This document shows positions 709-25,607 of a stretch of DNA of 64,000 nucleotides, piece after piece. The notes under the pieces were generated by a model. The model ran no database searches and was not told the origin of the DNA. It saw only the letters and a program-made list of their open reading frames with translations. The stretch is taken from NCBI GenBank assembly GCA_964361595.1, contig CAYIAX010000004.1:615-64614 (forward strand), in the 5' to 3' direction. Numbering within the stretch: position 1 is the first letter of the stretch; the number at the start of each line of letters is the position of its first letter. Made by a program: the position numbers and the translations under genes. Origin of the DNA: an uncultured Candidatus Saccharibacteria bacterium. Lineage in GTDB: Bacteria; Patescibacteriota; Minisyncoccia; UBA6257; 2-01-FULL-56-20.

Positions 709-831
709 GTTCCGTTCCTTTCATATTCGATTGTCCGGGTACAATTTCTTGTTAACATAATCCCTTGCCAGAGTCCAGATTTTCTAAAAGCCTTACAATA
801 GAATCCTCCGGAAAATCGTACGGCTTTCCGT

Positions 832-1062: not shown

Positions 1063-1127
1063 GGAAGTAAAATGACGTTCGACTTCCTTCCGCCTCCGCC
1101 CTATCTACAAATTAGACCTTTGGTAAT

Positions 1128-1927: not shown

Positions 1928-3085
1928 ATGTTTATAACTTACGACAACAAAAAAAATGAGAAAGATATTCTCGAAAAAACCTCGAGAATTGAGCTGAAAA
2001 ACATATTGGGCAAAAGGGCAAAAAATAAGCTCATTCATGCCGACAATCTTTCTACTCTCAAAACTCTGCTCGACGATTATTCGGGTAAAGTTGATTTGAT
2101 TTATATTGACCCCCCATTCGCCACAAACGGACACTTCAAAATTAGCGAAGACAGGGCAAATACCGTAAGCAGCAGCAACGGTGATGCCATCGCATACAGC
2201 GATACATTGGTCGGCGCCGACTTTTTGGAATTTCTGCGTGAGCGCCTGGTTTTTCTGCGTGAACTTTTATCGGAGCGCGGGTCAATCTACCTTCATATTG
2301 ACTACAAAATTGGGCATTATGTAAAACTCATCATGGACGAAGTCTTTGGCCGCGAGATGTTCCGAAACGATATTACGCGTATCAAATGCAATCCCAAGAA
2401 TTTTGACAGGAAAGCGTACGGCAATATTAAGGATTTAATACTCTTTTATTCAAAGTCGGCTGCGCCGACGTGGAATGACCCGCGCGTTCCTTTCACGGAA
2501 GAAGATAAAGAGCGTTTATTCAAGAAACTGGATAAAGGCGGACGACAATATACAACTATTCCACTCCATGCCCCCGGAGAAACTTCTAGTGGCAATACCA
2601 GCAAAGAATGGAAAGGAATGAAGCCGCCTAAAGGCCGCCATTGGCGGACTGATCCGGCGGTTTTAGAAGAATGGGACAAGCAAGGATTGATTGAATGGTC
2701 GGTTAACGGTGTTCCACGCAAAAAAATCTTCCTTGATGAAAATGAAGGCAAAAAAATGCAGGATATCTGGGAGTTCAAAGACCCGCAGTATCCGCAGTAT
2801 CCAACCGAGAAAAACTTGGATTTACTAAAGTTTATTATTGAGGCCTCATCAAGCGAGGGCGATTTGGTGCTTGATTGTTTCGCCGGCTCCGGCACAACTC
2901 TGGTTGCCGCCCAAACGCTTAATCGCAACTGGATCGGGATTGATAAATCGGAACAAGCAATCAAAGTTGCAAAAAAAAGATTAGCGGGTTTGCCGAACAG
3001 CTTATTTTCAAAAGCTGAATATGAGTTTTTAGAAGAAGAAAATTATATCGAAGTTCCTAAAGAATCTTTTACTCAAGCCATCTAG
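1928..3085 (+). CDS. site-specific DNA methyltransferase, beta-class amino-MTase (N6-adenine or N4-cytosine)
   Basis: Motif IV IDPPF is near the N-terminus and motif I DCFAGSGTT near the C-terminus; the IV-before-I order defines the beta class. Confidence 0.85.
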   Translation: MFITYDNKKNEKDILEKTSRIELKNILGKRAKNKLIHADNLSTLKTLLDDYSGKVDLIYIDPPFATNGHFKISEDRANTVSSSNGDAIAYSDTLVGADFLEFLRERLVFLRELLSERGSIYLHIDYKIGHYVKLIMDEVFGREMFRNDITRIKCNPKNFDRKAYGNIKDLILFYSKSAAPTWNDPRVPFTEEDKERLFKKLDKGGRQYTTIPLHAPGETSSGNTSKEWKGMKPPKGRHWRTDPAVLEEWDKQGLIEWSVNGVPRKKIFLDENEGKKMQDIWEFKDPQYPQYPTEKNLDLLKFIIEASSSEGDLVLDCFAGSGTTLVAAQTLNRNWIGIDKSEQAIKVAKKRLAGLPNSLFSKAEYEFLEEENYIEVPKESFTQAI

Positions 3086-3190
3086 TTAATGTGAGCTACC
3101 CCAAATCCTTACCCGCCAGTTTTTGGGCCTGGAATTGCCGGTCGTGTGCGAGACGATTAAGCGAGCTTTAAGCGGAAAAGGCTTGAGGGC

Positions 3191-3236
3191 TTTGCGCGAA
3201 AATTAAGCGACTTCCGATGTCCAAATATTACGCAAT
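3191..3236. terminator. perfect 15-bp inverted repeat (gacttccgatgtcc...gggacatcggaagtc) downstream of the R-M cassette
   Basis: Palindrome seen directly in the sequence. No U-tract, so terminator function is uncertain. Confidence 0.3.
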
Positions 3237-3326
3237 TTCGGGACATCGGAAGTCATTAAATTAGCTCGCAATCCCTGTTATTTCGTGCTAGAATAAGTGT
3301 GCCGCCAAAGCGGCATTCTTCAACTC

Positions 3327-5396
3327 ATGGCTAAAAAAGAACCGGAAAAGCAGAATTCCTATAGTGCCAAGGATATTTACGTACTTGAGGGCCTGGAGCC
3401 CGTCCGCAAGCGCCCTGGCATGTATATCGGTTCCACGGGGACCGACGGCCTGCACCACTTAATTTGGGAGGTCGTGGACAACTCCCTCGATGAGGCGATG
3501 GCCGGCTATGCCAAAAACGTTACGATCGAACTTTTGCCTAAAGATCAGGTGGCGGTAACCGATGACGGCCGCGGCATTCCGGTTGAAACTCACAAGCAGA
3601 CCAAAAAATCGGCCTTGGAAACGGTTTTAACCACGCTTCATGCGGGAGGTAAATTTGGCGGGGAATCGTACAAAATTTCCGGCGGTTTGCACGGCGTCGG
3701 CGTTTCGGTTGTGAATGCTTTGTCCGAATGGATGCGCGTCGAAGTTTTCCGCGACGGCGGATTGTGGGTTCAGGAATACGAGCGGGGCAAGCCGAAATTC
3801 AAAGTCAAAAAAATCGGCGCGGCCAAAACCACCGGCACAAAAGTTATCTTTTCTCCCGATCCGGAAATTTTTTCAAACATAGAGTTCAATCTTAAAGGCA
3901 TCGTGGACCATTTGCGCCAGCAGGCGTATTTGACGAAGGGCGTGCGCATCAATATTTTCGACCGCCGCAAAGCGCCGCCGGCTTTTTACGGATTTTATTT
4001 CGAAGGAGGACTCAAGTCATTCGTAAGATATTTGTCCCGCGATGAAAAGCCACTGCAGGAGGATATTTTTTACGCGCATAAAGAATACGATGCCTCGGTT
4101 GAAAACGGCGGCAAAGGCAAGGGCAAAATCGAAGTCGAAGCCACTTTCGTCTATGTGGACGATATCGAAACGCGTGAGTTGTCTTTTGCCAATAACATTT
4201 ATACGCCCGACGGTGGCATGCATCTTACCGGTTTCCGTTCGGCCTTGACGCGCTCCTTGAATGCCTACGCCCGTTCCGAGGGGTACCTGAAGGAAAAGGA
4301 GGAAAATCTCACGAGCGATGACGTGCGCGAGGGCCTGGTGGCCGTGGTTTCGGTAAAACTGCGCGAGCCGCAGTTTGAAGGCCAAACCAAAGCGCGCTTG
4401 GGGAATCCGGAAGCCCGCACCGGCACGGAAGCGGTCGTGAACGAAACGCTTAAAGAGTTTTTGGAAAAGCATCCGCAGGAAGCGCGGCGGCTGATCGAAA
4501 AAGTAATGCTCGCGGCCAAGGCGCGCTTGGCGGCTAAAGCCGCCAAAGACACCGTACTTCGGAAGGGAGCCTTAGAGGGGCTTACCTTGCCCGGCAAGCT
4601 TGCCGATTGCACTTCGAAGAACGCTTCCGAATCGGAGCTTTTTATCGTCGAGGGAGATTCCGCCGGCGGCAGCGCCAAATCCGGGCGCGATCGCAGAACG
4701 CAGGCAATCCTTCCCGTCAAAGGAAAAATTTTAAACGTGGAAAAAGCGCGGCTCGACAAGATGCTTGGCAATGTGGAAATCCGTTCGCTTGTTGTTGCTT
4801 TGGGCACGGCGATTTCAGAAAATTTTGATCTCGCGAAACTCCGTTATCACAAAATCATTTTAATGAGCGATGCCGATGTGGACGGAGCGCACATCCGCAC
4901 GCTTTTTCTCACGCTTTTTTATCGCTATTTCCCGAAGATAATCGAATCCGGCCATCTCTACGTCGCCCAGCCTCCGCTTTATCGCATCCAGGCTGGTAAA
5001 GATGTCAGGTATGCATTTACCGAGGGAGAAAAACAAAAATTAGTGGACGAAGTTTTAAAAGCCAAAGCAGAGAGGAGAGGCAAGGGCGGCAAGGAAGCCG
5101 AGCCGGTTGTAGACGCAGAGGGCGCCGCGCTTGAAGCCGAAGCGGAAGGGGAAAGTCAGACAGGCTTAACAACTAAGGGAGTTGCCATCCAGCGTTATAA
5201 AGGTTTGGGTGAAATGAACCCTGACCAGTTGTGGGAGACAACGATGAACCCGGAAAACCGGCTCTTAAAGCAGGTAGTAGTTGACGACGTCATTAAGGCT
5301 GACAAGCTTTTCAATATCTTAATGGGGGATCAAGTGGACCCGAGAAAACAGTTCATTCAGGCGCACGCCGAGGCGGTGCAGAACTTGGATATTTGA
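3327..5396 (+). CDS. gyrB: DNA gyrase subunit B
   Basis: MAKKEPEKQNSYSAKDIYVLEGLEPVRKRPGMYIGSTG..., GHK ATPase and TOPRIM motifs (EGDSAGG), and the C-terminal YKGLGEMNPDQLWETTM motif. Confidence 0.95.
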   Translation: MAKKEPEKQNSYSAKDIYVLEGLEPVRKRPGMYIGSTGTDGLHHLIWEVVDNSLDEAMAGYAKNVTIELLPKDQVAVTDDGRGIPVETHKQTKKSALETVLTTLHAGGKFGGESYKISGGLHGVGVSVVNALSEWMRVEVFRDGGLWVQEYERGKPKFKVKKIGAAKTTGTKVIFSPDPEIFSNIEFNLKGIVDHLRQQAYLTKGVRINIFDRRKAPPAFYGFYFEGGLKSFVRYLSRDEKPLQEDIFYAHKEYDASVENGGKGKGKIEVEATFVYVDDIETRELSFANNIYTPDGGMHLTGFRSALTRSLNAYARSEGYLKEKEENLTSDDVREGLVAVVSVKLREPQFEGQTKARLGNPEARTGTEAVVNETLKEFLEKHPQEARRLIEKVMLAAKARLAAKAAKDTVLRKGALEGLTLPGKLADCTSKNASESELFIVEGDSAGGSAKSGRDRRTQAILPVKGKILNVEKARLDKMLGNVEIRSLVVALGTAISENFDLAKLRYHKIILMSDADVDGAHIRTLFLTLFYRYFPKIIESGHLYVAQPPLYRIQAGKDVRYAFTEGEKQKLVDEVLKAKAERRGKGGKEAEPVVDAEGAALEAEAEGESQTGLTTKGVAIQRYKGLGEMNPDQLWETTMNPENRLLKQVVVDDVIKADKLFNILMGDQVDPRKQFIQAHAEAVQNLDI

Positions 5397-5757: not shown

Positions 5758-6311
5758 TGGATAAAGAACAGAAACAAGTTGCCGGCAAGCGCGAGTGGTA
5801 CGCCATCCACACCTATTCTGGTTATGAAGAGGCGGTGGCGCGCTACTTGAAACAGCGCGTCGAGTCGCTTTCGATGGAAGATAAGATCTTCAACGTGGTC
5901 GTGCCCACCGAAAAAAAGATCAAGGTAAAAAGCGGCCGCCGCCAGACGATCGAAGAAAAGATTTATCCCGGTTATGTTTTGGTGGAAATGATTTTGGCCG
6001 AGGATTCCTGGTACGTTGTGCGGAATACGCCGCGCGTAACCGGTTTCGTGGGCGCCGACAATACCAAGCCGGCTCCGCTCTCCAAAGAAGAGGTTGAATC
6101 GCTCTTGAACCGGATGGGCCGCGAAGAAAACCGCTATAATGTGGATTTGCGCGTGGGCGACGTCGTCAAGATCATTGACGGGCCGTTCAAGGAGTATGAC
6201 GGCAAAGTTGCGGAGATTGACGAAGAAAAAGGCCGCGTCAAAGTGATGGTGCCGATCTTCGGACGCGACACGGCGGTTGATCTGGATTCATTGCAGGTTA
6301 AGAAACTATGA
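5757..6311 (+). CDS. nusG: transcription termination/antitermination factor NusG
   Basis: NGN domain (WYAIHTYSGYEEAV) plus a KOW domain (GDVVKIIDGPFKEYDGKVAEID). Confidence 0.9.
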   Translation: MDKEQKQVAGKREWYAIHTYSGYEEAVARYLKQRVESLSMEDKIFNVVVPTEKKIKVKSGRRQTIEEKIYPGYVLVEMILAEDSWYVVRNTPRVTGFVGADNTKPAPLSKEEVESLLNRMGREENRYNVDLRVGDVVKIIDGPFKEYDGKVAEIDEEKGRVKVMVPIFGRDTAVDLDSLQVKKL

Positions 6312-6388
6312 CCATCAACTAATTACGAATATCATACGAATAAACGAATTTGTATATTCGTAAAGATTCGATATTCGTTGATAAAAAT

Positions 6389-6811
6389 ATGGCTAAAGAA
6401 ATCAAAACAACTATTAAATTACAGCTCGAAGCGGCGAAAGCGAACCCCGCGCCGCCGGTCGGAACCGCCTTGGGTCCGCACGGCGTAAATATCGCCGACT
6501 TCTGCAAGCAGTTCAACGAGGCCACGAAGGACATGGTTGGCGACGTGGTGCCGGCGGAAATCACGATTTATACGGATCGCAGTTTTACGTTTAAGCTCAA
6601 GACCCCGCCGGTTGCGGCGCTCTTAAAGCAAGCCGCCGGCGTGGAGAAGGGCGCCGCGAATCCCCTGAAGGACAAAGTCGGCAAAGTCTCGCGCGCGGAT
6701 GTGCGAAAGATCGCCGAGCGTAAAATGCCGGATTTGAACACCGACAGCCTGGAAGCGGCGGAAAAGATAGTGGAAGGCGCGGCGCGTTCAATGGGGATCA
6801 CGGTTGAATAA
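6389..6811 (+). CDS. rplK: 50S ribosomal protein L11
   Basis: [43 protein letters not shown] is a canonical L11 N-terminus. Confidence 0.9.
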
Positions 6812-6870
6812 GCCGAGATTTACGGTAAATTTTTTTCCTGGTAAACTGGTTAAAACCGGTTTAAAGCCGT

Positions 6871-7509
6871 ATGGTAAAAAACACTTATCCGGGGAAATTC
6901 ATCGTTTTTGAAGGCCCCGACGGCTCGGGGCAATCAACTCAAGCAGATTTATTGAAAAAGCATTTTGAGGAGAAGGGAAAGACTGTTTGCTTGACCCATG
7001 AGCCGACACTTGATAGTCCGGCTGGCTTGAGGGTTAAAAATATTTTGACTCACCAGGAGCCACCGCCTTCGCCGTTCGAATTTCAAAAGCTTTATGCGAT
7101 TGATCGCGAGGTGCATTTGAAGAATAAGATAATTCCTGCTTTGAAAAAAGGCGAGTACGTCATTTCCGATCGGTATTTTTTCTCAACCTTTGCTTTTGGG
7201 TCTTTGGGATGCGATCTAGAAGCTTTGATTGATTTGAACAAAAACTTTCTTTATCCTGATCTGACATTCATTTTAAGAGTGGCTCCCGAAATTTCCATAT
7301 ACAGAATTGAAAAGCGGGGCCGCCAAGTGGAATTTTTTGAAAAACTGGAAAAGTTAAAGAGGGTAAATAACGCTTATAAAATTTTACAAAAAAGATTTGA
7401 AAACTGTTTTTTGATCGACGGAGAAAAACCGATTGAGGAAGTTCATGCGGTTGTGCTTGCAAAGTTAAACATTTTGAATATTGGCTTACCTGCCTATAAT
7501 CAATCCTGA
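6871..7509 (+). CDS. tmk: thymidylate kinase
   Basis: P-loop FIVFEGPDGSGQSTQ and the DRY motif (ISDRYFFS). Confidence 0.8.
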   Translation: MVKNTYPGKFIVFEGPDGSGQSTQADLLKKHFEEKGKTVCLTHEPTLDSPAGLRVKNILTHQEPPPSPFEFQKLYAIDREVHLKNKIIPALKKGEYVISDRYFFSTFAFGSLGCDLEALIDLNKNFLYPDLTFILRVAPEISIYRIEKRGRQVEFFEKLEKLKRVNNAYKILQKRFENCFLIDGEKPIEEVHAVVLAKLNILNIGLPAYNQS

Positions 7510-7515
7510 CTCCCC

Positions 7516-7629
7516 ATGCCCAAATACAAACCCACCATCGGACTTGAGGTTCCCGCCTTCGCTAAAGCTTCCACCGGCGCTAAAGCTATGGCGGACAAGC
7601 TGGCGGGCAAGCACGCTTTATTAATATGA
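7516..7629 (+). CDS. 37-codon upstream ORF whose first 12 codons mimic the gatB N-terminus; its stop TGA overlaps the gatB ATG (ATATGA)
   Basis: MPKYKPTIGLEV... versus GatB MNYQPTIGLEV...; the remainder is encoded by a repeat element (cccgccttcgctaaagct...). Confidence 0.3.
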   Translation: MPKYKPTIGLEVPAFAKASTGAKAMADKLAGKHALLI

Positions 7630-9245
7630 ATTATCAACCAACAATCGGACTTGAGGTGCATGCGGAATTGAAGACGCGAACCAAGATGTTCTGCGATTCT
7701 TTAAACGACCCGGACGAGCGGCACCCAAATGTGAATGTTTGTCCGGTTTGCCTCGGCCATCCGGGAGCCTTGCCGACGATCAACAAGCAGGCCGTGGAGG
7801 CCGTTATCCGCGCGGGTTTGGCCCTGGGCGGAAAGATAAATGAGCGGGCGAAATTTGACCGCAAAAATTATTTTTATCCCGATCTGCCGAAGGGCTATCA
7901 AATCTCGCAGTACGACGAACCGATTGTCACGGGCGGGGAATTAAAAGGAGTGCGGGTGCGCAGAATTCACCTCGAGGAGGATACGGGAACATTGGCGCAT
8001 TTTGCGCCAAGCGCAGACCTGCGCGGACCGGACGCAGATCGACGCGGAAACTTTCTGCGTGAGTCGGCGTTAAGTCAGCGTGAGTCAGCGTCGTTGGTTG
8101 ATTTTAACCGCGCAGGCGTGCCCCTTTTGGAACTTGTGACTGAACCGGACATTACGAGCGCGGAACAGGCGGTGGAGTTCGGCAAGGCTTTACGTCTTAT
8201 TTTCCGTTATCTCGGGATTTCTGATGCCGACATGGAAAAGGGCCAAATGCGGCTTGAAGCCAATGTTTCGCTTCGCGAAACCGCGGATGATCGCGGATCA
8301 AACGCGGATCAACGCGGAAACGGCTTAGGCGAAAATCTCGGGACGAAGGTTGAGATTAAAAACATAAATTCGTTTAAGGCGCTAGGCGTGGCCATAGCTT
8401 ACGAGCTAAAGCGGCAGGAAGAGCATTTAAAAGAGGGAAAAAAGATCGTCCAGGAAACGCGCGGCTGGAACGAAGACAAACAAGCGACCGTTTCCCAGCG
8501 GTCGAAAGAAGAGGCGCACGATTACCGCTATTTCCCTGAACCCGATTTACCGCCCATTCGTCTTACGAATGGTCGAGCCTCGCCCACCGATGTGGGCGGG
8601 CCGCCTTCGGATATCGCCTTCGACATTGAAGCCATCCGCGCTTCGTTGCCTGAATTGCCGGAGCAAAAAATCGGCCGCTTCGAGCGCGAATTCGGAATTT
8701 CTGCCAAGCAAGCCGAACTTCTTGTAAGTGATAAAAAAGTCGCGGATTTTTTTGAAGAAGCTGTTAGCGAACTGGCAACACGAGACGAACTCACTACTTC
8801 TAGGATTGACAAGAAATCACAAGAAATGCTTTTTAACTATATTACTGGTACAGCGAGGGGTATTTACTCCACAATGCTTGTTCAAGAAAATGGAGCTGTG
8901 CTTGGGAAGATAAAACCGGAGCATATAGCCCATTTGATAGATCTTATTTGTGATGGAAAAATAGGCGAACGCCAGGCAAGGGATATCTTAAAGAAAATGT
9001 TTGAGGATGGTTCAGATCCAGAAGAAATTCTAAATCGGGAAGGTTTACACACGGTCTCCGACACAGAAGAACTCAAACTCGTGGTGGAAGAGGTGATCGC
9101 AGAAAATCCCACTGCGGCTGCGGATTATAAAAAAGGCAAAGCACAAAGTTTGCAATTTATGATTGGCAAAGCGATGGGAAAATTGAAGGGCAGAGGGAAT
9201 CCCGGCGTGCTCAAGGAAATTTTTGAGCAGAATCTATCGCAGTAA
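7626..9245 (+). CDS. gatB: Asp/Glu-tRNA amidotransferase subunit B; carries two in-frame repeat-element insertions
   Basis: GatB N-terminus (TIGLEVHAELKT), the CPVCLGHPGALP zinc motif and a C-terminal YqeY-like tail. Low-complexity inserts ADLRGPDADRRGNFLRESALSQRESAS and ADDRGSNADQRGNG. Confidence 0.9.
   Translation: MNYQPTIGLEVHAELKTRTKMFCDSLNDPDERHPNVNVCPVCLGHPGALPTINKQAVEAVIRAGLALGGKINERAKFDRKNYFYPDLPKGYQISQYDEPIVTGGELKGVRVRRIHLEEDTGTLAHFAPSADLRGPDADRRGNFLRESALSQRESASLVDFNRAGVPLLELVTEPDITSAEQAVEFGKALRLIFRYLGISDADMEKGQMRLEANVSLRETADDRGSNADQRGNGLGENLGTKVEIKNINSFKALGVAIAYELKRQEEHLKEGKKIVQETRGWNEDKQATVSQRSKEEAHDYRYFPEPDLPPIRLTNGRASPTDVGGPPSDIAFDIEAIRASLPELPEQKIGRFEREFGISAKQAELLVSDKKVADFFEEAVSELATRDELTTSRIDKKSQEMLFNYITGTARGIYSTMLVQENGAVLGKIKPEHIAHLIDLICDGKIGERQARDILKKMFEDGSDPEEILNREGLHTVSDTEELKLVVEEVIAENPTAAADYKKGKAQSLQFMIGKAMGKLKGRGNPGVLKEIFEQNLSQ
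7991..8095. repeat. GC-type palindromic element, in-frame inside gatB
   Basis: gacgcagatcgacgcggaaactttctgcgtgagtcggcgttaagtcagcgtgagtcagcg: ACGCGGA-type units followed by their reverse complements. Confidence 0.7.
8281..8320. repeat. GC-type element half-copy inside gatB
   Basis: ccgcggatgatcgcggatcaaacgcggatcaacgcggaaa. Confidence 0.6.
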
Positions 9246-9262
9246 TCGCGCGAATAGCGAAT

Positions 9263-10360
9263 TTACGAATTCGCTCGATTCGATTTGATTCGTATTTTCG
9301 TGCGATTATTGCCGTGCGATGACATCCGCAAAAATTTTTGCGCGAGCGCTATGGCCGCTTGCGGAGAAGAAATCCAATGGATTTCTTTGTCGCGCTTGAA
9401 CCAGGTCATCTGCCGCTTGGCGTATTGCCAGATCGCTTTCTCGAGAGCTTGAAGCATTTCAGCTTTTTTCATGAGACCGCGCAGATAATAATTGATAAAA
9501 CGATATTCCAATCCCAAGGCGTCGAGCCGCTTTGAGCTTAATCCTTGTTTTTTGAGTTTCTGAACTTCTGTAATCATTCCCGCTCTCACGCGCTTATAAA
9601 GGCGTTCGTGAATCCGGTTTTTAAGCTCGCGTTCCGGCAAACGCACGCCGATCTTTAAAACTTCATACGGAGATGATTTGCCCAAAGGCGGAACGGGTTT
9701 TTTTGTCGTCAGCACAATTTCGAGCGCTCTTACGAGCCGCCGCGGATTGAAGCGATCAATCGTTTTTGCGCGTTCGGGATCAAGCGCTAAAAGTTTTTTG
9801 TAAAGCGACTCCGTGGTTTCGCGCTCAAGTTTTTTTCGTAAAGCGAAATTCGGTTTCACGGCCGGTAGCGCATAGGCTCCAAGCAAGGCGTTAACATATA
9901 AACCAGTTCCTCCGACAATGATAGGAATTTTATTCTTGGCTAAAGTTTTCTTAATGGCGGTTTTTCCCAGCCGTTGGAATTGAGCGACTGAAAAGATGCG
10001 CTGCGGCGAGGCGACATCAATCAAGTGATGAGGGACACCGCGCATCTCACGCTTAGTAATTTTGCCTGTGCCGATATCGAGCCCGCGATAAACCTGGCGT
10101 GAATCGGCGGAAATAATTTCGGCGCTTTTTCCGTGCCGCTTTAACCATGTCGCTAATTTAATCCCTAGAGTGGATTTGCCGCTGGCGTTGGGGCCGACAA
10201 CAGCAATGATTTTAGGTTTTTTAGTTGTGGTGGACCCCGTTAGAAATAACTTGGGCCAAATCTTTGAGTAATTGTAATCATAGCCCCAGCTGGAATTAGT
10301 TGAAGAGGCAAATTTATAAGTGTAAGCGCGAATTTCTAACGGGGTGGACACCTTGTTCAT
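9263..10360 (-). CDS. miaA: tRNA dimethylallyltransferase
   Basis: P-loop IIAVVGPNASGKST, DSRQVYRGLDIGTGK, and the typical MiaA core. It has a ~48-aa N-terminal extension and a C-terminal tail encoded by AT-type CGAAT repeats. Confidence 0.85.
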   Translation of the reverse strand: MNKVSTPLEIRAYTYKFASSTNSSWGYDYNYSKIWPKLFLTGSTTTKKPKIIAVVGPNASGKSTLGIKLATWLKRHGKSAEIISADSRQVYRGLDIGTGKITKREMRGVPHHLIDVASPQRIFSVAQFQRLGKTAIKKTLAKNKIPIIVGGTGLYVNALLGAYALPAVKPNFALRKKLERETTESLYKKLLALDPERAKTIDRFNPRRLVRALEIVLTTKKPVPPLGKSSPYEVLKIGVRLPERELKNRIHERLYKRVRAGMITEVQKLKKQGLSSKRLDALGLEYRFINYYLRGLMKKAEMLQALEKAIWQYAKRQMTWFKRDKEIHWISSPQAAIALAQKFLRMSSHGNNRTKIRIKSNRANS

Positions 10361-10635
10361 AAGAAAAGCCTTATTTTACCTTGATTTTTAAGCAATTTTA
10401 TGCTATATTCTACATAACAATCAAGAGGCGCATCGTAAAGCGAAGCGCTCCGGGGTTCTGTTCGAGAGGGGGGTGCGATGGAAGATAGTTTCGTGAGCTC
10501 GGATTTTTTAAAGGGCCTTTTAGCTTTTCTCGTAATCGCGGGATTGTACCTATATAAGTGGTTGTTTCCCCAACCGCCACAATACGACAGGAGATTCCGG
10601 CATCGCCATCGTTCGCCGGATGAATAATAATTCCG

Positions 10636-10670
10636 CACCCATATAGTTAGGCCGCCTTTATGGGGCCTTT
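10636..10670 (+). terminator. rho-independent terminator-like hairpin plus T-run (aggccgcctttatggggcctttttt)
   Basis: GC stem followed by TTTTTT, seen directly. It sits downstream of a 49-codon predicted membrane-peptide ORF (10478..10627). Confidence 0.4.
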
Positions 10671-10926
10671 TTTCGTTGCTGGGACGCTCTTTTGCTTTCA
10701 AAAGGTTATTGTATATTTAAATAAGTTCACCTGTGGGACGGATCGATCCGGGCTCGCCGCCGTATAGGGGGAAAAGATGGTCCTGCCCGTTGTGATAATT
10801 CTCGTCGCTCTCGTGGCAATCTTAGCATTCGTGTCGGTTGTGCCTCGAGAGTTCATCGAATCGTTTTTCTTCCGGAAATTGCAATAACGCTCCTGGCTTT
10901 GCCTGGAGCTTTTTTTGTGGCAGCTT

Positions 10927-12087
10927 TTACAGCTTTTCTGCGTTTTCCTTTTTAATTTTCGCAATTAAATTTTCAAGTTTAAATTCGCCCTCGGCATCCC
11001 GATAAGTTTTGCGTTCTTTATAAAGCCCCGGATGCCGTACGCTTGCGCTCCGGTTTTTTTCCTCTTTTTCACCGACGATAAGCAGGTAGGGGATTTTTTT
11101 AAGTTCTGCTTCGCGGATGCGGCGGCCTAGGGTTTCCGTGGCGGGAGAAATTTCCGCGCGGATGTCCGACGCCCGCAGTTCAGCCGCAAGCGATTCCGCA
11201 TAAGCCGCGGATTTTTCTCCGACCGGAAGAATTACGGCCTGCACAGGGGCGAGCCAAACCGGAAATGCGCCGGCAAAGTGCTCGATGATGATAGATAAAA
11301 ATCTTTCGATCGAGCCCATGATGGCGGCATGAATCATGACGATCCGCTCCGGCTTGCCGGATTCGTTTATGCAGGTCAAATCAAAGCGGTCCGGCATGTT
11401 TAAGTCGAGCTGAATCGTCGCCACTTGCCATTCGCGCCCTAAAGAATCGGTGGCCAAAAAATCTAGCTTCGGGCCGTAAAAAGCTGCTTCACCAATCGCT
11501 TCGAGGTGTTCCATTTGCTTGCGCTTCACGATTTCGCGCAAAATATTTTCTGCTTGAGTCCAGCGGGCCTTGTCGCCCAAAAATTTTTTCGGCTGTTTGG
11601 GATCGTGGAGTGAAAGTCGCAGTTTCAACTCTAAACCGACTGCACCGTAAAATTTCTGCACGATCTCCCAAATCTTCAATAATTCTTCTTTGGCCTGGAT
11701 GAGACGGCAAAAAACGTGTGCATCATCCTGGGTAAAACTCCGCACGCGCGAGAGGCCGGATAGCTCGCCGGTCTGTTCATCGCGGTAGCACATCGTGGTA
11801 TTCGCGTAACGCTGCGGAAGTTCTCGATAGCTCCACTGGCGCCGCGCATATATTTGCGTGTGATGCGGACAGTTCATCGGTTTCATCGCGAAGAGATGTC
11901 CTTCCCTGGTTGTGATTTTGAAAAGCTCGTCTTTGAATTTTTCCCAGTGGCCGCTTCGTTCGTAGAGTTCCTTTTTCGTAATGTGAGGAATTTCTACGCG
12001 TTCGTAACCTTTTTCGCGGCGTAGCTGCCAGACAAAGTCATCCAAAATGTTCCGCAAGAGCGTTCCTTTGGGGGGCCAAAGCTGCAA
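10927..12087 (-). CDS. thrS: threonyl-tRNA synthetase, catalytic core plus anticodon-binding part (TTG start in the ORF track; in frame with the upstream piece)
   Basis: Class II motifs: LWPPKGT (cf. FWHPKGW), FAMKPMNCPHH, TQDDAHVFC, and GSIERF in motif 3. Confidence 0.85.
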   Translation of the reverse strand: MQLWPPKGTLLRNILDDFVWQLRREKGYERVEIPHITKKELYERSGHWEKFKDELFKITTREGHLFAMKPMNCPHHTQIYARRQWSYRELPQRYANTTMCYRDEQTGELSGLSRVRSFTQDDAHVFCRLIQAKEELLKIWEIVQKFYGAVGLELKLRLSLHDPKQPKKFLGDKARWTQAENILREIVKRKQMEHLEAIGEAAFYGPKLDFLATDSLGREWQVATIQLDLNMPDRFDLTCINESGKPERIVMIHAAIMGSIERFLSIIIEHFAGAFPVWLAPVQAVILPVGEKSAAYAESLAAELRASDIRAEISPATETLGRRIREAELKKIPYLLIVGEKEEKNRSASVRHPGLYKERKTYRDAEGEFKLENLIAKIKKENAEKL

Positions 12088-12105
12088 ACGACTGGCGACG
12101 AGAGC

Positions 12106-12816
12106 CTAGAAAACGTAGAGGTCAAGTTCCGGCCCCAATTTTTTATGGTAGCGCTTTTCTGCTTCGGCGCGGCGCGCAAGATATTTATCCAATTCTTTTT
12201 TGTTTTGGAAAGCCAGTCCGTAGATCCGCTGGAGCTGGGGATTTTTTTCGCTGCCTTTCCAATACGCGCCGGCGATTTTGTCGAGCTTGAATCCATCCGC
12301 CGGAATTTCCTCTGTATTTTTCACGTGGCCGCCGCGGCACAAATCAATAAACGCAGATTTACGCTGATCAAACGCGGATGAACGCGGATTTAAGTTGCCT
12401 GTTACGTAAACTGTCAGGGTTTTCTTGTCCTTCGAAAAATCCTTTATAAGTTCGAGTTTGAAGGGCTGGTTCTTAAAAAGTTTTTTGGCTTCGGCGGGCG
12501 TAACTTTTTTCCCTGAAAACGGCAAATGCTCTTTGATCAGCCGGCGCATTTCCGCTTCGATTTCGGATAGATCTTCCGGGCGAATCTGCGTAGATCCGCG
12601 CTTTGATCCGCGTTTATCCGCATCTAATTGGAAGTCATAATAAAACCCGTTCTCGATCACGGGGCCGATGCCCAGTTGAGCCTTGGGAAATTTGCGCAAA
12701 ACAGCGTCGGCCAAAAGGTGGGCAAGCGAGTGGCGGACTTTGTCTAGCCGTAGGCTCGCTTCGTCCTGCCGAAGGCGGATTTTGTCGAGCGAGGCGTAGT
12801 TATGCTTTTGCGGCAT
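12106..12816 (-). CDS. thrS: threonyl-tRNA synthetase N-terminal (tRNA_SAD/editing) part, separated from the core by a single in-frame TAG
   Basis: HSLAHLLADAV (HxxxH) and YHKKLGPELDLYVF, then TAG, then ALVASRLQLWPPKG in the same frame. Two GC-type element halves are inserted in-frame. Confidence 0.75.
   Translation of the reverse strand: MPQKHNYASLDKIRLRQDEASLRLDKVRHSLAHLLADAVLRKFPKAQLGIGPVIENGFYYDFQLDADKRGSKRGSTQIRPEDLSEIEAEMRRLIKEHLPFSGKKVTPAEAKKLFKNQPFKLELIKDFSKDKKTLTVYVTGNLNPRSSAFDQRKSAFIDLCRGGHVKNTEEIPADGFKLDKIAGAYWKGSEKNPQLQRIYGLAFQNKKELDKYLARRAEAEKRYHKKLGPELDLYVF
12349..12625. repeat. GC-type element with its two inverted halves (12349-12392 and 12583-12625) separated by ~190 bp of thrS coding sequence
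   Basis: Left half aaacgcagatttacgctgatcaaacgcggatgaacgcggattt; right half agatctgcgtagatccgcgctttgatccgcgtttatccgcatct. Confidence 0.6.
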
Positions 12817-12890
12817 TTTTTTATTATAGGCGTTTTAACTCTGTTTTTAAAGGCCTTAACGACTGCTCTCAACTGCGGTATTATGGCTTT

Positions 12891-14207
12891 ATGCTTGACA
12901 TCAAATTCATCCGGGAGAACGAAAAAGAGCTGAAAAAAGCCATCAAAAATAAGAACTTGTCTCTTGATCTCGACGCGCTTATTTCTTTGGATAAAGAGAG
13001 GGTAGAACATATCCAAAAAATCGAAGAACTGAAGGCTCTAAAAAATAATCTGAACAACAGGGTATCCGCCGCCAAGGACGACGAGGAAAGAAAAAAAGCG
13101 ATAGAGGAAGGAAAAACGATAAAAGAAAGATTGTCCGAGCTTGAGCCGGAACTCAATGCAATCAATGAAAAATTCGAGGAAATGATGGTCCAGGTGCCGA
13201 CGATACCTTCAGCTGACACGCCAATCGGGAAAAGCGAAGAAGACAATGTTGAGATCGCGCGCTGGGGCGAACCGGAATTCAAGGGTGGTTTCAAGCCGAA
13301 GGATCATATCGAGATCGGCAAAGCGCTCGACATCATAGATTTCGAGCGGGGAGCGAAAGTCGCGGGCTTCCGCGGTTATTACCTCAAGGGCGACGGCGCG
13401 GCCATCGTCCTGGCGCTCATGATGTATGCGGCGGAAAAAATGATAAAAAAGGGATATCCGCTCACGATCCCGCCGACGCTCGTTAAGGAATTCGCTCTTT
13501 TCGGCAGCGGATATTTCAAAGGCAGGGAATACGATCCGGAAACCGACGAAATTTATCTGGTCGGTTCGGGAGATAGGGAAGCGACGGGAGAAAAAAGCAG
13601 AGACAAAAAATTCCTGGTCGGCACGGCGGAACCGTCTCTTTTGGCTTACTATTCTGACGAAGTGATTGACGAAGAGAAACTCCCGATAAAAGCATCGGGT
13701 TTCAGCCAGTGCTACAGGAGCGAGATAGGCAGTTACGGCAAGGACGTCAAGGGCCTCTATCGGGTGCACGAATTTATGAAAGTGGAACAGGTTGTTATCT
13801 GCAGGGACGACAAAAAAGAAGCGGAGATGTTACAGGAAGAGATGATCGCGATCTCAAAAGAGATGCACGAGGAGCTCGGCTTGCCTTACCGGCAGGTAAT
13901 AATCTGCACGGGAGAATTGGGTCCCGGAAAATACAGGCAGTACGATCTCGAGGTTTGGCTGCCCGGAATGAACCGCTGGGCGGAAACCGGTTCGGCGAGC
14001 ATTTTTCTTGATTGGCAGTCGAGAAGGCTGAATGTTAAATACGCGGATAAGTCCGGCAAGAAAAAATTCGTCTACATGTTAAACAATACCGCCCTCCCGA
14101 GTCCCCGGCCCCTGATCGCCATCCTCGAGAATTATCAGACCGAGGACGGCAAGGTGAGAGTCCCCGAAGTTCTCAAAAAATACCTGGGTAAAGATATAAT
14201 CGGATAA
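12891..14207 (+). CDS. serS: seryl-tRNA synthetase
   Basis: N-terminal coiled coil, class II motifs (FRGYYLKGDGA, GFSQCYRSEIGS, GSASIF...LNNTALPSPR). Start chosen at ATG 12891 rather than the ORF-track 12603, which overlaps thrS. Confidence 0.9.
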   Translation: MLDIKFIRENEKELKKAIKNKNLSLDLDALISLDKERVEHIQKIEELKALKNNLNNRVSAAKDDEERKKAIEEGKTIKERLSELEPELNAINEKFEEMMVQVPTIPSADTPIGKSEEDNVEIARWGEPEFKGGFKPKDHIEIGKALDIIDFERGAKVAGFRGYYLKGDGAAIVLALMMYAAEKMIKKGYPLTIPPTLVKEFALFGSGYFKGREYDPETDEIYLVGSGDREATGEKSRDKKFLVGTAEPSLLAYYSDEVIDEEKLPIKASGFSQCYRSEIGSYGKDVKGLYRVHEFMKVEQVVICRDDKKEAEMLQEEMIAISKEMHEELGLPYRQVIICTGELGPGKYRQYDLEVWLPGMNRWAETGSASIFLDWQSRRLNVKYADKSGKKKFVYMLNNTALPSPRPLIAILENYQTEDGKVRVPEVLKKYLGKDIIG

Positions 14208-14219
14208 AATCTCTTTAAA

Positions 14220-15029
14220 ATGGGATCCGTTGACGTTTATATTCCCGAAGCACGCGCCTTGCGCGACCGCAAAACGCGGTATGTTTGGCTGGGCATCTTA
14301 TTTTTAGCTCTCTATTTTATTAGCCTCATTGCCGCTTGGGTTGTCTTCCGTTCGCCGCTTTTCAAATTCAAAGAGTTGAGGATCGAGGGCAATGAAACGG
14401 TTCAAAAAGAAGACATCCTCATGCTTTACCAAAGCAACATGTTCAGGGATTCCTTTTTCCGTTATCTTTTGGGCTATCGCAACTTTTTGGTTTGGCCGGA
14501 GGAGCTTACACCGGAAGAGTTGCGGCAGTTTCCGGTAATCAAACGGGCGGCAACGGAAAAAGATTACGGACGCGGTTTGCTTTTGATCAAAGTGGAGGAA
14601 CGGAAGGCGGCAGGAATTTGGTGCGGCATGCAAACGGAACTACCCCGCTGTTTTTGGTTCGACGACGAAGGCGTGCTCTTTGATAAAGCTCCGCTTGTCG
14701 AGGGCAACTTGATTCGCGCCGTGCGGGATTATGCAAGCGCTGAAATTTATTTGGGCGCCCGCGTGCTGGGCAAGGAGCAAATCACAAACCTACTCTCGGT
14801 CTTCCAGGTTTTTGCGCGAACGGGTTTGAGCGTCAAGGAAATTAGTTTGTCCGATTTGGGCCTGCAGGAGCTTACGATTACAACTTACGAAGGCCCGGAG
14901 CTTTATTTCAGCCTGCGTTTCAAAGCGGACGATGCGGCGCAAGTCCTGGATTTCTTGGACCAGAAGCCAAATTTCCGGAAATTCGAGTACGTTGATTTTC
15001 GAGTGAAGGATAGAGTGTACTATAAATAA
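14220..15029 (+). CDS. FtsQ/DivIB-like cell-division protein (N-terminal TM plus POTRA-like domain)
   Basis: TM helix WLGILFLALYFISLIAAWVVF followed by FKELRIEGNETVQKEDILML. Pattern-level call only. Confidence 0.45.
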   Translation: MGSVDVYIPEARALRDRKTRYVWLGILFLALYFISLIAAWVVFRSPLFKFKELRIEGNETVQKEDILMLYQSNMFRDSFFRYLLGYRNFLVWPEELTPEELRQFPVIKRAATEKDYGRGLLLIKVEERKAAGIWCGMQTELPRCFWFDDEGVLFDKAPLVEGNLIRAVRDYASAEIYLGARVLGKEQITNLLSVFQVFARTGLSVKEISLSDLGLQELTITTYEGPELYFSLRFKADDAAQVLDFLDQKPNFRKFEYVDFRVKDRVYYK

Positions 15030-15065
15030 TGCAAAAATTAAAAATCAAAATGAAAAATGACGAAG

Positions 15066-15107
15066 TTTTCATACTTTCTAATTCGCGCGAATTAGAAAGT
15101 ATGAAAA
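15066..15107. terminator. perfect 21-bp inverted repeat (ttttcatactttctaattcgcg|cgcgaattagaaagtatgaaaa) between convergent genes; bidirectional terminator candidate
   Basis: Seen directly; flanked by A/T runs on both sides. Confidence 0.55.
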
Positions 15108-15173
15108 ATTGTAAACATTCTATCTTCCAAAATCCAGAAAACTAACTTTTTCGAGAAAAGCCGGAGCAAGATA

Positions 15174-17198
15174 TCACAGTTTGTAAATAAAGATTGATGT
15201 GCCCGCCCTATAATCCGGTTCGGGGACATTCCCTATTCCTGGTTTTGGCGGGCGAAGCTCGGTAAGCCAGCGGTACTCCTCTTCCGGTTTGCGAACTTGG
15301 CCGGGCACGGTCGGCTGGATTGCGCCTTCAAGCGTATTGACCGAAACCGCTAACCAATGAATCGCGGATTTACGCTGACCATACGCGGACTCGCGCGGAA
15401 AATTTTCTGCGTTGGTCTGCGTTTGGTCTGCGTCGTTCTGCGCCAAAGAGGGGTTGCCGCGACCCGACCACCAATATTCCGCTTTGTCCTCGCCAAGATA
15501 ATATTTAGGATTGGCGCCGCCGAAATAATCAACGGCAATTTTATCGATTTCCGGGTTGGCTTCCACGAATTTCTTGAGCCGCAGCATGTCCTGTCCCCAG
15601 TCGTAGTTCGAATCAGTCACGAAGCGGTAACCGTTCTCTTTGCCGCCGCCAATTTCATTGAAGTAAGAGATGAAGTGAGGCGCATTTACGAGCGTTTCCA
15701 GAATGAACCAAATGACGAGCACGACGACGGCGATATATTTTAACGCGGCCGAGAAGAATAATTTTGCCCAAGCTTTGAGGTTTTGCCAAAAAGAATTTAA
15801 ACGAGGCACTTCAAGTCCGACCACCCATTGTTTCAGGGCGCTTGCCGTGAGGATATAAATGAAGGGAAGCGTCGGGAAAAGATGCCGAAAACCGATATTC
15901 AAAGGGCTCTGCATGCTCCAGCCCCAGTAAAGGATGATGAAAACCAGCATCGCAAATTCCGGAAAACGATTTTCGATGTATTCAAGCACGAAGCGCATTG
16001 CTTGCCGCGGCAGGCGGAATAATTTTCCGAGCATGTTCCGCAAGGCTGTGAGGATGGCGATGAAGATCATGAGGAGCACAGGCAGGGGTTCCTTTAAGGC
16101 ATAAACCACGGGGAAATAAGAAGTCCAGCCGGCGGCGGAAACTTCGCCTAAAAAGTAATTCGTATTTCCTCCCGAAGAGCGCTGGAGCACCATGAGGACG
16201 CCCAGCATGTATTCCGCGAAGGGCCGCGTTACGGGATTTTTTGTGAGCCAAATGTTCAAGTCGGCCAAGCAGCGCAGGGGTTTACAGCTTGCCTCGGGCG
16301 GCGTCGGTCCGTCTGCGAAGGAAGCCAGGATGAACTCCGTATCCGCGGTTTGCTTGGCTTGCGGATAATTGACCGTGAAAAGCGCGTAGACCGGATAAAC
16401 GATTAAAAGGTAGCCGATGCCGAAAATAACGATGAGCGCGCGAACATAACGGAAAGCGCGGATGCCGAAGCGCTTGAAACGCAGTGCCGGATCGGTATTC
16501 CGCCAATCGCGCAGCAAACCCACGCCGTAAAAAGCGATCAGCAAGAAAATGAAATATGGCATCAAAAGCACCGCAGAAAATTTTGCGAGCTGGGCGACGC
16601 CGAAAATAATCCCCGCAATGATTAAATGCTTGCGGGAAGGATGAAGCAAGAAAGTTATGAGCGCATAAGTCGCGGCGAAGACGCCGAAAGCAGCAGCGAC
16701 ATCGGTGGTAACGTAATGGCCGTGCGCAAGGATATTAGGCGAGAGGGCAAAAATCCCCGCTGGCAAGAGCGCCCAGAATTTGCCAACGAGCTCCCGCGCC
16801 CAAAAATAAATGAGCCAGACAAGGATGAGCGTCAAGAGCATGGGCCCGATGCGCGCAACCTGGATAATTTTGTCCGCATCATTGCCCGCGCCGTAAAGAA
16901 AATTCCAGCCCATCGCCCATTGGCCGTTTACCTCTTGCCAAGGCGGAATGTCGGTCGGGAGAGTTGGATTGAATGTTAAGAGCGGCAAACCAGCCAAAGC
17001 TTTAAGGAGCGGCGGATGCTCCGGGTTCAAACGAAAGTCCAGATTGTGAACGTAAGCGTAGCCAGCCGGAATATGAGCCAGCTCGTCCATGATCGCCGAT
17101 TCCTCGAGCGACGAATAGGTCATGAGCCCCGCAGCCGCTATCGTGATAAGTACGAGGATCCAGATCGGCCAGACGCGCGGATTCAAAGATGACTCCAT
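15174..17198 (-). CDS. polytopic membrane glycosyltransferase, GT39/PMT/ArnT-like family
   Basis: More than 10 predicted TM helices. First loop has MDELAHIPAGYAY...NPEHPPLLK, resembling the DE-motif loop of PMT/ArnT-type transferases. Contains a GC-type element in-frame (15361-15447). Confidence 0.55.
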   Translation of the reverse strand: MESSLNPRVWPIWILVLITIAAAGLMTYSSLEESAIMDELAHIPAGYAYVHNLDFRLNPEHPPLLKALAGLPLLTFNPTLPTDIPPWQEVNGQWAMGWNFLYGAGNDADKIIQVARIGPMLLTLILVWLIYFWARELVGKFWALLPAGIFALSPNILAHGHYVTTDVAAAFGVFAATYALITFLLHPSRKHLIIAGIIFGVAQLAKFSAVLLMPYFIFLLIAFYGVGLLRDWRNTDPALRFKRFGIRAFRYVRALIVIFGIGYLLIVYPVYALFTVNYPQAKQTADTEFILASFADGPTPPEASCKPLRCLADLNIWLTKNPVTRPFAEYMLGVLMVLQRSSGGNTNYFLGEVSAAGWTSYFPVVYALKEPLPVLLMIFIAILTALRNMLGKLFRLPRQAMRFVLEYIENRFPEFAMLVFIILYWGWSMQSPLNIGFRHLFPTLPFIYILTASALKQWVVGLEVPRLNSFWQNLKAWAKLFFSAALKYIAVVVLVIWFILETLVNAPHFISYFNEIGGGKENGYRFVTDSNYDWGQDMLRLKKFVEANPEIDKIAVDYFGGANPKYYLGEDKAEYWWSGRGNPSLAQNDADQTQTNAENFPRESAYGQRKSAIHWLAVSVNTLEGAIQPTVPGQVRKPEEEYRWLTELRPPKPGIGNVPEPDYRAGTSIFIYKL
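15361..15447. repeat. GC-type palindromic element inside the GT39-like gene
   Basis: atcgcggatttacgctgaccatacgcggactcgcgcggaaaattttctgcgttggtctgcgtttggtctgcgtcgttctgcgcc. Confidence 0.7.
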
Positions 17199-17260
17199 TG
17201 TGTTTATTATACATTTTTCGTTGCTTTTTCCCCAGGAGCGGATAGAATTTGTGAGTAAAG

Positions 17261-19243
17261 ATGAAGGTCCCCAAGAAAAACATTTCCCGCCGCTTGGCTG
17301 ATATCAAAAATCGCAGCCAGGCCGTTCCCGAAGCCAAAGCAGAAGCCCCGATTGCCGTCGAGCGGATAATTTCAGTTTTTAAACCTGTAGCCGAGAAAAC
17401 CAGCTTGCCCAAGCGCAAATGGCCGCAGCGTTTGACTTTGATCGCCATAGTTTTTGCCTTGCTCGTCTTTGCGGGCTATGAGATTTTCGCTCGATCCGGC
17501 AGTATTGCCGGAATTCGAGCCAAGTTGAATTGGGCGGCAGGCGAAGGCGGGCCAACCGGTGAAACGTCCGGATTAAGTTGGGAGCAATTTTCAGCCAAGC
17601 TCAAACCTATTTTTGAAGAAGGCGGCGGGTTTTATGGAGATTTAGGCTTACTGGGATCGGCTTTCCTTAATTTATCTTCGGAAGCTGCGAAACTAGATAG
17701 TGCGCTCCAGGACGCACTCTTAGGCAAAAGCGGCGAACCGCTTTTGCGCGAGCTTAAGTCCACCGAGAATTATTTAAACGAGCTAAGCTCAACCTTAAGC
17801 TCGCTCACAAAAGAGGAAAGTATATTGAGCGGCGAAAATGCAGGCGCGCGGGCAGAAATATTGGGAGCCCAGCTCGAAGTCAACCGCATTTCGGAATTCC
17901 TTAAAGCTTTTATCCCGTGGCTTGCCGCGGACGAACCGCATCGGCTGGTGGTGATCCTGGGCAATTCTTCCGAGCTGCGGCCTGGAGGCGGGTTTATCGG
18001 CAGCTATGCCGAACTTAAATTGGAGAAAGGCCGGCTGGCGGAAATTAACGTCAGGGACATTAACGAACCCGATCGCTTGTTGGAGAAAAAAATAATTCCG
18101 CCGCGGCCGTTGCAGTTTCTCGTAAAAAATTGGCGCGCGGCCGATTCGAACTGGTTTTTCGATTTTTCGCAATCCGCACGGAAATTTATCGATTTGCTTT
18201 CGCAGTCTGAACTATACAAAGGAACAAAGCTTGAGGGCGTGCTCGCTGTTTCTTCGCAAGTTGTGAGCGATCTTTTGGGCATGACTGGTCCGATCGAGGC
18301 TGAGGGCACAGTTTTGACCAGTAAGAATTTTCTGCAGTCCATCCAGACGGATGTGCAATCGGACCAAGCCGAAGGAGCGGCCGAGCCGAAACAGCTTTTG
18401 AAATCCGTGGCCCCGCTCTTGCTTCAAGGCGCGGCAAAACTTTCCTTGGAAGATAAAAGGAAGCTTTTGGAGAAAATCGGCGAGTGGGTGAAGAACAAGG
18501 ATTTGCTTTTTTATTTCACCGAGCCGGAATTTGAAAAGCTGGCATCCGCCTATGAGTCTGCCGGCAAGGCTTACATTTTGCCGCGGGGCGAGAATGTAAA
18601 TTACCTGGCCGTAGTTAATGCCAACGTAGGCGGCGGCAAGAGCGACCTATACTTGGATCAAAATATCTTTTGGCAGGTCAGGCTGCGGGAAAACGGCGGG
18701 GCGGATTACAAAGTGCTTGTCGAGAAAACACATCGCGGAAATCAGAGCTCTTTTTGGTGGTATCAAGTGCCGAGCGAACACTATACGCAAGTCATTGTTC
18801 CTAAAGATTCCATACTCCTTGCGGCGAGCGGGGGCCGGGCGCGCGGAGCGCCGCCGCGTACGTACGACAGCACCTACGAAAGAGATCCGGATGTCGTGAG
18901 CTGGGAAGCGAGCCGAAAAATAAATGAAGAACTCCCAATGATTGAAGAATATGAAAATGGCAATAAAAGAATTTTTGCCACCTGGATGAAAACGCCTGTA
19001 GGCGAGACAAGTAGGTTAACGCTCGAATACTCTGGCCGGTTGCCGAAGCTGCCGCTTATTGGTCAGACATACAGCTTTGTGGTTGAAAAACAGGCGATGA
19101 GCCGCAGCGGTTTCAAGCTGGAGACGCTGGCTCCCGCCGGTTTCCGCTTCCGCGAAAATCATTTGCCCGTATATGAATATGAAACGCCCGCCTTGCCCGG
19201 CCGCTTGAGCCTAGAACTCACACTTGAGGCAGTACCTGAATAA
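17261..19243 (+). CDS. membrane-anchored hypothetical protein, tentatively DUF4012-like
   Basis: N-terminal TM helix (LTLIAIVFALLVFAGY) and motif VVILGNSSELRPGGGFIGSYAEL. The family name is from memory and unverified. Confidence 0.4.
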   Translation: MKVPKKNISRRLADIKNRSQAVPEAKAEAPIAVERIISVFKPVAEKTSLPKRKWPQRLTLIAIVFALLVFAGYEIFARSGSIAGIRAKLNWAAGEGGPTGETSGLSWEQFSAKLKPIFEEGGGFYGDLGLLGSAFLNLSSEAAKLDSALQDALLGKSGEPLLRELKSTENYLNELSSTLSSLTKEESILSGENAGARAEILGAQLEVNRISEFLKAFIPWLAADEPHRLVVILGNSSELRPGGGFIGSYAELKLEKGRLAEINVRDINEPDRLLEKKIIPPRPLQFLVKNWRAADSNWFFDFSQSARKFIDLLSQSELYKGTKLEGVLAVSSQVVSDLLGMTGPIEAEGTVLTSKNFLQSIQTDVQSDQAEGAAEPKQLLKSVAPLLLQGAAKLSLEDKRKLLEKIGEWVKNKDLLFYFTEPEFEKLASAYESAGKAYILPRGENVNYLAVVNANVGGGKSDLYLDQNIFWQVRLRENGGADYKVLVEKTHRGNQSSFWWYQVPSEHYTQVIVPKDSILLAASGGRARGAPPRTYDSTYERDPDVVSWEASRKINEELPMIEEYENGNKRIFATWMKTPVGETSRLTLEYSGRLPKLPLIGQTYSFVVEKQAMSRSGFKLETLAPAGFRFRENHLPVYEYETPALPGRLSLELTLEAVPE

Positions 19244-25606: not shown

Positions 25607-25607
25607 C

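Follow-up and report, generated by a model that had tools for sequence, protein, structure and literature searches.

Does the in-frame TAG in the threonyl-tRNA synthetase gene (thrS) of the window, the whole stretch of 64,000 nucleotides that was analyzed, interrupt an essential gene of a living organism, or does it belong to the deposited sequence alone? The codon reads TAG at minus strand positions 12108..12106, and translation of the window places it in frame with thrS 12816..10927. The coordinates of the features discussed below are shown in Table 1.

Table 1. Features of the window and matches to it, with positions counted from its first nucleotide
Feature	Position	Strand	Remarks
thrS, complete	10927..12816	-	629 codons plus TAA stop, the TAG counted as codon 237
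TTG codon	12085..12087	-	start of the 386-aa 'catalytic piece' for ORF finders and the public annotation
Dense patch	12075..12160	-	nine transversions in 86 bp relative to L001
TAG codon 237	12106..12108	-	TCG (Ser) in L001; C to A at 12107, gene strand
Tenth transversion, outlying	12372	-	I149F, in a poorly conserved insertion
Match to L005 (replicate 3)	23920-31812		one mismatch
Match to L003 (replicate 1)	35731-49346		100.000%
Match to L004 (Logan, ERR3858116)	40162-44944		100.000%
Match to L006 (replicate 1)	49336-51164		one mismatch
Match to L006 (replicate 1)	52823-64000		100.000%
~133-bp element	33640-33772, 34218-34350, 35730-35862, 36209-36341	+	~22-bp terminal inverted repeats
~133-bp element	51029-51165, 52818-52951	-	core common to all six
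rpoA	34976-35728	+	250 aa; N-terminal dimerization and insert domains
Valyl-tRNA synthetase	41749-44568	-	939 aa; NF004349, 809.6 bits
bAvd / 23S_rRNA_IVP small genes	57210-57548, 58821-59192	+	Pfam
Giant ORF	~59292 to beyond 64000		adjoins the bAvd-type genes; >1,732 aa on L006

Threonyl-tRNA synthetase gene and its two pieces

The product of thrS is a bacterial-type ThrRS without a TGS domain. Its architecture, as determined with Pfam, comprises an N2/tRNA_SAD editing domain, a class II core and an HGTP anticodon-binding domain, the matches over both pieces being PF07973 (3.6e-10), PF00587 (3.3e-43) and PF03129 (1.5e-18). The 236-aa ORF 12816..12106 on the 5' side of the TAG carries tRNA_SAD; on the 3' side the frame is kept for 392 codons, in which the class II core and the HGTP anticodon-binding domain are found. 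Translation and Pfam thus agree with the first-pass annotation, which had placed an in-frame TAG between the N-terminal and the catalytic parts of the gene. The minus-strand codons at the site are GAC CTC TAC GTT TTC TAG GCT CTC GTC GCC AGT CGT TTG CAG CTT TGG CCC CCC AAA GGA ACG, and the peptide reads ...ELDLYVF, stop, ALVASRLQLWPPKGT. The segments KPMNCPHH, QDDAHVF and MIHAAIMGS, matched by motif alone, all lie on the 3' side of the TAG, i.e. the zinc-ligand motifs are kept; the catalytic zinc ligands of E. coli ThrRS we take to be Cys334, His385 and His511.

No other locus of the window has one stop between two long open stretches of a real gene. The intact allele, protein P0123, scored 626.9 bits on the TIGR00418 thrS model (cut-off 383.65). 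A tblastn search with P0123 matched the window at 12816..10930 with 98.6% identity and detected no second copy of thrS in the window. An uninterrupted frame with RDHKKLG..LDLFxFSDLVGxGLPLWTPKG is absent from the window and fully present in P0123 and in contig L001, on which the comparison below is based.

The longest ORF on the 3' side of the TAG begins at TTG 12087. The public record accordingly presents thrS as two CDS fragments of 236 and 386 aa, the latter being the NCBI protein P0097 with the N-terminus MQLWPPKGT. In the intact gene this TTG encodes Leu within the invariant GLPLW motif, which was found in nearly all of 119 relatives and as GLPLF in one. No Shine-Dalgarno sequence precedes the TTG, and most genes of the genome likewise have none.

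Between the stop of thrS and the start of miaA, both on the minus strand, 566 bp (10361-10926) contain no called gene, a long gap for so compact a genome. Rfam gave no match in 10361-10926 at the gathering threshold.

Sister assemblies and the substitution patch

The cluster at 90% identity that holds the catalytic piece has four members: the two fragments of the window (NCBI, one 65,103-bp contig), a 136-aa fragment (ENA) and the 629-aa P0123 (ENA). Each of the broken products, P0121 and P0097, occurs on one contig alone, the 65,103-bp NCBI contig. Apart from I149F, P0123 differs from the conceptual product of the window only at the eight residues of the patch, each of which agrees with the family consensus in P0123, Ser standing in place of the stop.

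Contig L001 (ENA ERZ1292629, Hain_H43_01um_R1_3412, 12,294 bp, cov 5) was obtained from Hainich well H43, 0.1 µm filter, replicate 1. It aligned to window 18517..6228 over 12,290 bases without gaps. Of the 11 mismatches, ten fall in 12075..12372, and nine of the ten in 12075..12160; the eleventh, at 7895, is a transition. The nine positions of the dense patch are 12075, 12083, 12090, 12095, 12104, 12107, 12116, 12150 and 12160. In the protein they correspond to D223Y, F234Y, S237 to stop, D238A, G241A, G243R, P245Q and T248P, plus one synonymous change. All ten clustered changes are transversions and 9/10 are non-synonymous. The outlying I149F may stem from the same faulty fragment, or may be an unrelated SNP or error. 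No change relative to L001 was found in the other ~1.6 kb of thrS, nor in what remains (1.15 kb) of the catalytic and anticodon-binding part.

At the background rate 0.024 mismatches are expected in 298 bp, and the Poisson probability of at least 10 is 2e-23. The nine changes in 86 bp span less than one 150-nt read, and the ten in 298 bp about one library fragment. Ten transversions in ten have a probability of 0.017 without bias and of ≤0.001 with the usual transition bias.

Another ~37 kb of the window is matched at 99.96-100.000% by contigs L002 to L006, which belong to this population. Away from the patch, four isolated mismatches were counted in ~49 kb. The k-mer coverage of the population was 2-5 in the two replicates in which it was seen. 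L002 (replicate 3, cov 2) begins at window 11813, short of the TAG site, and gives no third reading of the codon. At L002 350-482 (~window 11340-11470) it switches, inside thrS and at the FYGPKLDF motif, to a divergent ThrRS, and a run of N and a 90-bp duplication follow the switch. L002 is a chimeric scaffold and shows the fragility of low-coverage assemblies of this population.

For comparison with other organisms ~5.8 billion protein clusters were searched. The full-length ThrRS relatives (578-665 aa) are up to 71% identical and all belong to Patescibacteria. The 119 relatives share the near-invariant segment A-x-K/R-R-D-H-K-x-L-G-x-x-L-D-L-F-x-F-S-D/E-L-V-G-x-G-L-P-L-W-T-P-K/R-G-T, in place of which the window has RYHK, DLY, F-stop-A and VASRLQLWPPKG. 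In the MAFFT alignment the columns of D223, F234, S237, G241, G243, P245 and T248 are invariant in 119/119 relatives, Ser standing in all 119 at the column equivalent to the TAG, and the column of D238 holds D or E in 117/119. Only ~40% of the ThrRS columns are conserved so strongly, and every one of the eight altered residues, which lie within 26, falls on such a column. At all eight, L001 agrees with the family and the window deviates. Eight changes on conserved columns within 26 residues are not the product of selection or neutral drift.

Neither a start nor an end was found at the TAG site in the 119 full-length relatives and 120 shorter fragments. In the 80 nearest GTDB loci the tblastn ThrRS match crosses the site, and the three loci read in detail are intact ORFs. 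A 171-aa query centered on the site returned only proteins of <300 aa with ≤86% identity; the lack of further fragments among its matches carries no weight, because known 100% matches were also unlisted. A degenerate 60-mer fitting both alleles found no further copy of the site in the genome or metagenome contig collections.

Editing-less ThrRS genes were observed in L058 at 2971-4266 (431 aa), in L074 at 2986-4203 and in L075 at 647-1864 (both 405 aa). They have no tRNA_SAD domain and no separate editing ORF upstream, and they start just before DHKKLG. In L074 and L075 the short ThrRS gene lies between dnaE and miaA.

Two claims of the first-pass annotation are affected by these comparisons. 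The TAG was described as single, and it is the only stop that splits thrS, but it is one of a dense substitution patch in which seven more conserved positions deviate. That an essential gene is truly interrupted by an amber codon is not supported, L001 being intact and the patch being seen in the assembly of the window alone. The sense codon that was to be looked for at the site is present in L001 as TCG, at the level of assemblies, not of reads.

The window probably derives from the Hainich NextSeq/metaSPAdes data, because it is 100% identical to Hainich contigs. Two-color instruments encode A as red plus green, C as red, T as green and G as dark. Misreading of one channel therefore always yields a transversion, and a transition requires failure of both channels. 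Each of the ten changes is the flip of a single color channel. For Hainich, 32 libraries were sequenced on the Illumina NextSeq 500 (2x150) and each was assembled separately by metaSPAdes (PMC8672522; bioRxiv 10.1101/2021.10.13.464073). The raw reads of Hainich libraries, three H43 0.1 µm replicates among them, are filed at ENA under PRJEB36505 and PRJEB36523; run ERR3858116, the origin of L004, may be part of these data. The libraries were made with the NEBNext Ultra FS kit from DNA of filters, and this preparation is assumed to have involved PCR. NextSeq two-color chemistry produces very few A/G and C/T errors (PMC5374548). Both the spectrum of the patch and its spatial scale fit the platform.

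Other features of the window

A family of ~133-bp intergenic elements has six copies in 64 kb. The four copies on the plus strand have the terminal inverted repeats AATCCCTCACCCTTTAGCGATT ... AGATCGCTAAAGGGTGAGGGAT, and the core present in all six is CCCTCACCCTT ... AAGGGTGAGGG. The downstream genes, which are ribosomal protein and ATP synthase genes, have their ATG exactly where the 3' arm ends. A long stem is predicted (-42 kcal/mol), in which the start region with GGGTGAGGG and the ATG would be hidden. Such an element could be of MITE type, or a translational leader that several genes share; the copies are too alike to provide covariation. Two copies bound a segment of ~1.66 kb (51165-52822) with ORFs 51163-51663 and 52088-52825, which is present in the window and missing from L006. 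The difference reflects either repeat collapse in L006 or a real repeat-mediated insertion or deletion. A further copy directly follows the TAG stop of rpoA, whose product has no Pfam match for the alpha C-terminal domain.

Residues 491-661 of the valyl-tRNA synthetase form a complete PF00300 His_Phos_1 (histidine-phosphatase) domain (E = 7e-47), which splits the halves of the class I catalytic domain and is an unusual insertion for an aminoacyl-tRNA synthetase. It is not an assembly error, because the protein is identical in L003 and L004. The bAvd-like genes and the giant ORF may belong to a diversity-generating retroelement; none of the called genes was flagged as a reverse transcriptase.

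Most genes of the window lack a Shine-Dalgarno match. In several, among them thrS (ATG at 12816), the PMT_2 gene 15174-17198 and the gene 55506-56207, a TATAAT box lies a few bases before the ATG, which suggests leaderless or near-leaderless transcripts.

Origin of the interruption and comparison with known systems

The TAG is very probably part of a local error patch in the deposited consensus and would be foreign to the thrS of the organism; a split thrS is almost certainly not a real feature. This conclusion is drawn from assemblies. The patch is not reproduced independently, L001 having the consensus base at all ten positions. The source organism would be a low-abundance population of Patescibacteria in Hainich groundwater, whose single bacterial-type thrS is ordinary and intact, is 629 codons long and has TCG (Ser) at codon 237. 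The assembly behind the window would have taken ~90-300 bp from faulty sequence, supplied by one or a few poor-quality NextSeq reads or by a single library fragment, damaged or mis-copied, together with its PCR duplicates. Either source could set the consensus where good coverage was locally missing, and the outcome would be ten transversions, one of them turning TCG into TAG.

How faulty sequence may have become consensus is constrained by the assembler. De Bruijn assemblers normally retain the path with the higher coverage; to be retained, the faulty one must have been the sole or the majority path in its library. The 65-kb contig suggests that coverage was not extremely low. One 150-nt read barely holds nine changes and clean flanks at k=33, which is impossible at k=55. 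Because a single read barely suffices, a damaged or mis-copied template with duplicates is at least as good an explanation as pure base-calling error. A transversion-biased natural spectrum keeps some standing, because 3/4 isolated mismatches elsewhere are also transversions; gradual decay is ruled out, because the rest of the gene is unchanged.

The patch might instead be a real minority allele of thrS, produced by a localized mutation burst (through a patch of error-prone repair or clustered oxidative damage, or in a molecule of dead or relic DNA) and present in some cells as a non-functional pseudogene, with or without compensation by a second thrS elsewhere. Because a contig was assembled with the patch, one or more molecules of DNA or library must have contained it, and assemblers usually keep the majority path; moreover, 6/10 changes are of the G:C to T:A and A:T to C:G types that are expected from 8-oxoguanine chemistry. 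The proposal is nevertheless improbable, given an intact allele from the same well and sampling campaign whose flanks differ by one base in 12 kb. In an essential gene, the stop and seven changes at invariant or nearly invariant residues would kill the cell unless there were a second copy, which the window does not have. Natural decay of a redundant copy would leave scattered lesions that include transitions and synonymous sites, and the observed ones are nearly all non-synonymous, without exception transversions, and packed for nine of ten within 86 bp; on the same grounds the recent pseudogenization considered in the first-pass annotation is improbable. Such an allele, if real, would have to be a dead-end molecule, and in-vitro damage to the molecule would merge the proposal into the artifact explanation. 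It is more doubtful still that a living strain with real transversion-only hypermutation in the ThrRS linker survives on two fragments or on a second thrS; if true, it would offer a snapshot of a split or editing-free ThrRS arising in genome-reduced Patescibacteria. Two further sources of the patch were rejected. A chimeric join with a foreign thrS, as in L002, does not apply to a patch without a mix of transitions and synonymous changes and without the residues of a functional homolog. A diversity-generating retroelement or gene conversion does not account for changes that are not adenine-specific on either strand, and no second copy or template repeat was found in the window.

Two explanations accept the TAG as functional, and neither is given more than a minimal chance. 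If ThrRS truly consisted of two polypeptides, an editing one of 236 aa and a catalytic one of 386 aa from TTG 12087, acting together or separately in a crenarchaeal-like way, the break would be placed roughly as found, where the N2 editing domain gives way to the class II core. Stand-alone catalytic ThrRS forms are known in related Patescibacteria, and few Shine-Dalgarno sites are used in the genome, so the missing one at the TTG is no argument against a start there. The break, however, sits inside the invariant FSDLVG motif, it does not recur in any of the relatives in which it was sought, and an unsplit gene exists in the same population. The natural short forms L058, L074 and L075 keep DHKKLG..LDLFxFSDLVGxGLPLWTPKG; the putative 386-aa piece would lack this segment, of which only a mutated remnant is left (R for G, Q for P, P for T). 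Because the short forms start ~15 residues upstream of the Ser equivalent to the TAG, the break in the window does not coincide with the natural domain boundary. The initiation at TTG 12087 put forward in the first-pass annotation is unsupported, that codon being the Leu of G-L-P-L-W. Decoding of the TAG by programmed readthrough, a suppressor tRNA or reassignment, yielding a full-length ThrRS, is just as hard to credit. The frame is kept across the TAG, and the window has three tRNA genes only, tRNA-Gly(CCC), tRNA-Pro(GGG) and tRNA-Glu(UUC), so that no tRNA(CUA) was found in it and a suppressor tRNA may lie elsewhere. TAG terminates rpoA and atpH where their Pfam profiles end, as well as at least 8 other long ORFs, in keeping with the earlier judgment that global recoding is unlikely. 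The stops of the 37 called genes are TAA in 25, TGA in 7 and TAG in 5, and none of these genes has an internal stop. On this usage, and on the lack of any other in-frame TAG or split ORF pair in the window, recoding or a suppressor tRNA was rejected. The sister allele has an ordinary Ser codon, and a readthrough product would still bear seven substitutions at invariant or nearly invariant residues. Among the alternatives that had been listed at the outset, the evidence favors the one named first, a sequencing or assembly error.

With an error patch in the consensus as the preferred reading, the biological weight of the finding is small, the organism almost certainly having an ordinary thrS. 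The two-CDS record would wrongly lower completeness and pathway calls, and it could pass for a pseudogene or a split synthetase in a CPR genome that is already 'minimal'. For the triage of metagenome-assembled genomes, two checks are proposed before recoding or gene fission is considered: whether the stop lies within a tight cluster of substitutions at invariant residues, and whether all of these are transversions, the signature of two-color Illumina chemistry.

The natural precedent for a genuinely split enzyme is the crenarchaeal ThrRS, in which editing and aminoacylation reside on two polypeptides, reportedly described by Korencic et al. in PNAS in 2004 as ThrRS-cat and a free-standing ThrRS-ed. 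That split is conserved in its lineage, involves an archaeal-type editing domain, and gives each gene its own start and intact motifs, whereas the break in the window occurs on one contig alone, interrupts an invariant motif and is accompanied by seven more damaging substitutions. The editing-less ThrRS of Patescibacteria show that a catalytic and anticodon-binding ThrRS alone is viable in the phylum, but they keep LDLFxFSDLVGxGLPLWTPKG whole, and the 386-aa ORF of the window starts inside this segment. Systems with reassigned or suppressed TAG (Pyl; TAG-to-Gln, code 15, in some phages) are alike in having an in-frame TAG in a conserved gene with the frame preserved. The window differs from them in using TAG as a working terminator, in having no tRNA(CUA) and in the Ser TCG of the sister codon.

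The closest likeness is to low-coverage short-read consensus errors that create false 'interrupted genes', in which, as here, the lesion is found in one assembly and is absent from an independent one. The patch is clustered within the length of a read or fragment and consists of transversions only, the kind of miscall that two-color (NextSeq/NovaSeq) chemistry makes (PMC5374548). Ten changes surviving into the consensus make the patch unusually heavy by comparison with the usual consensus errors, which it resembles in striking conserved residues regardless of selection.
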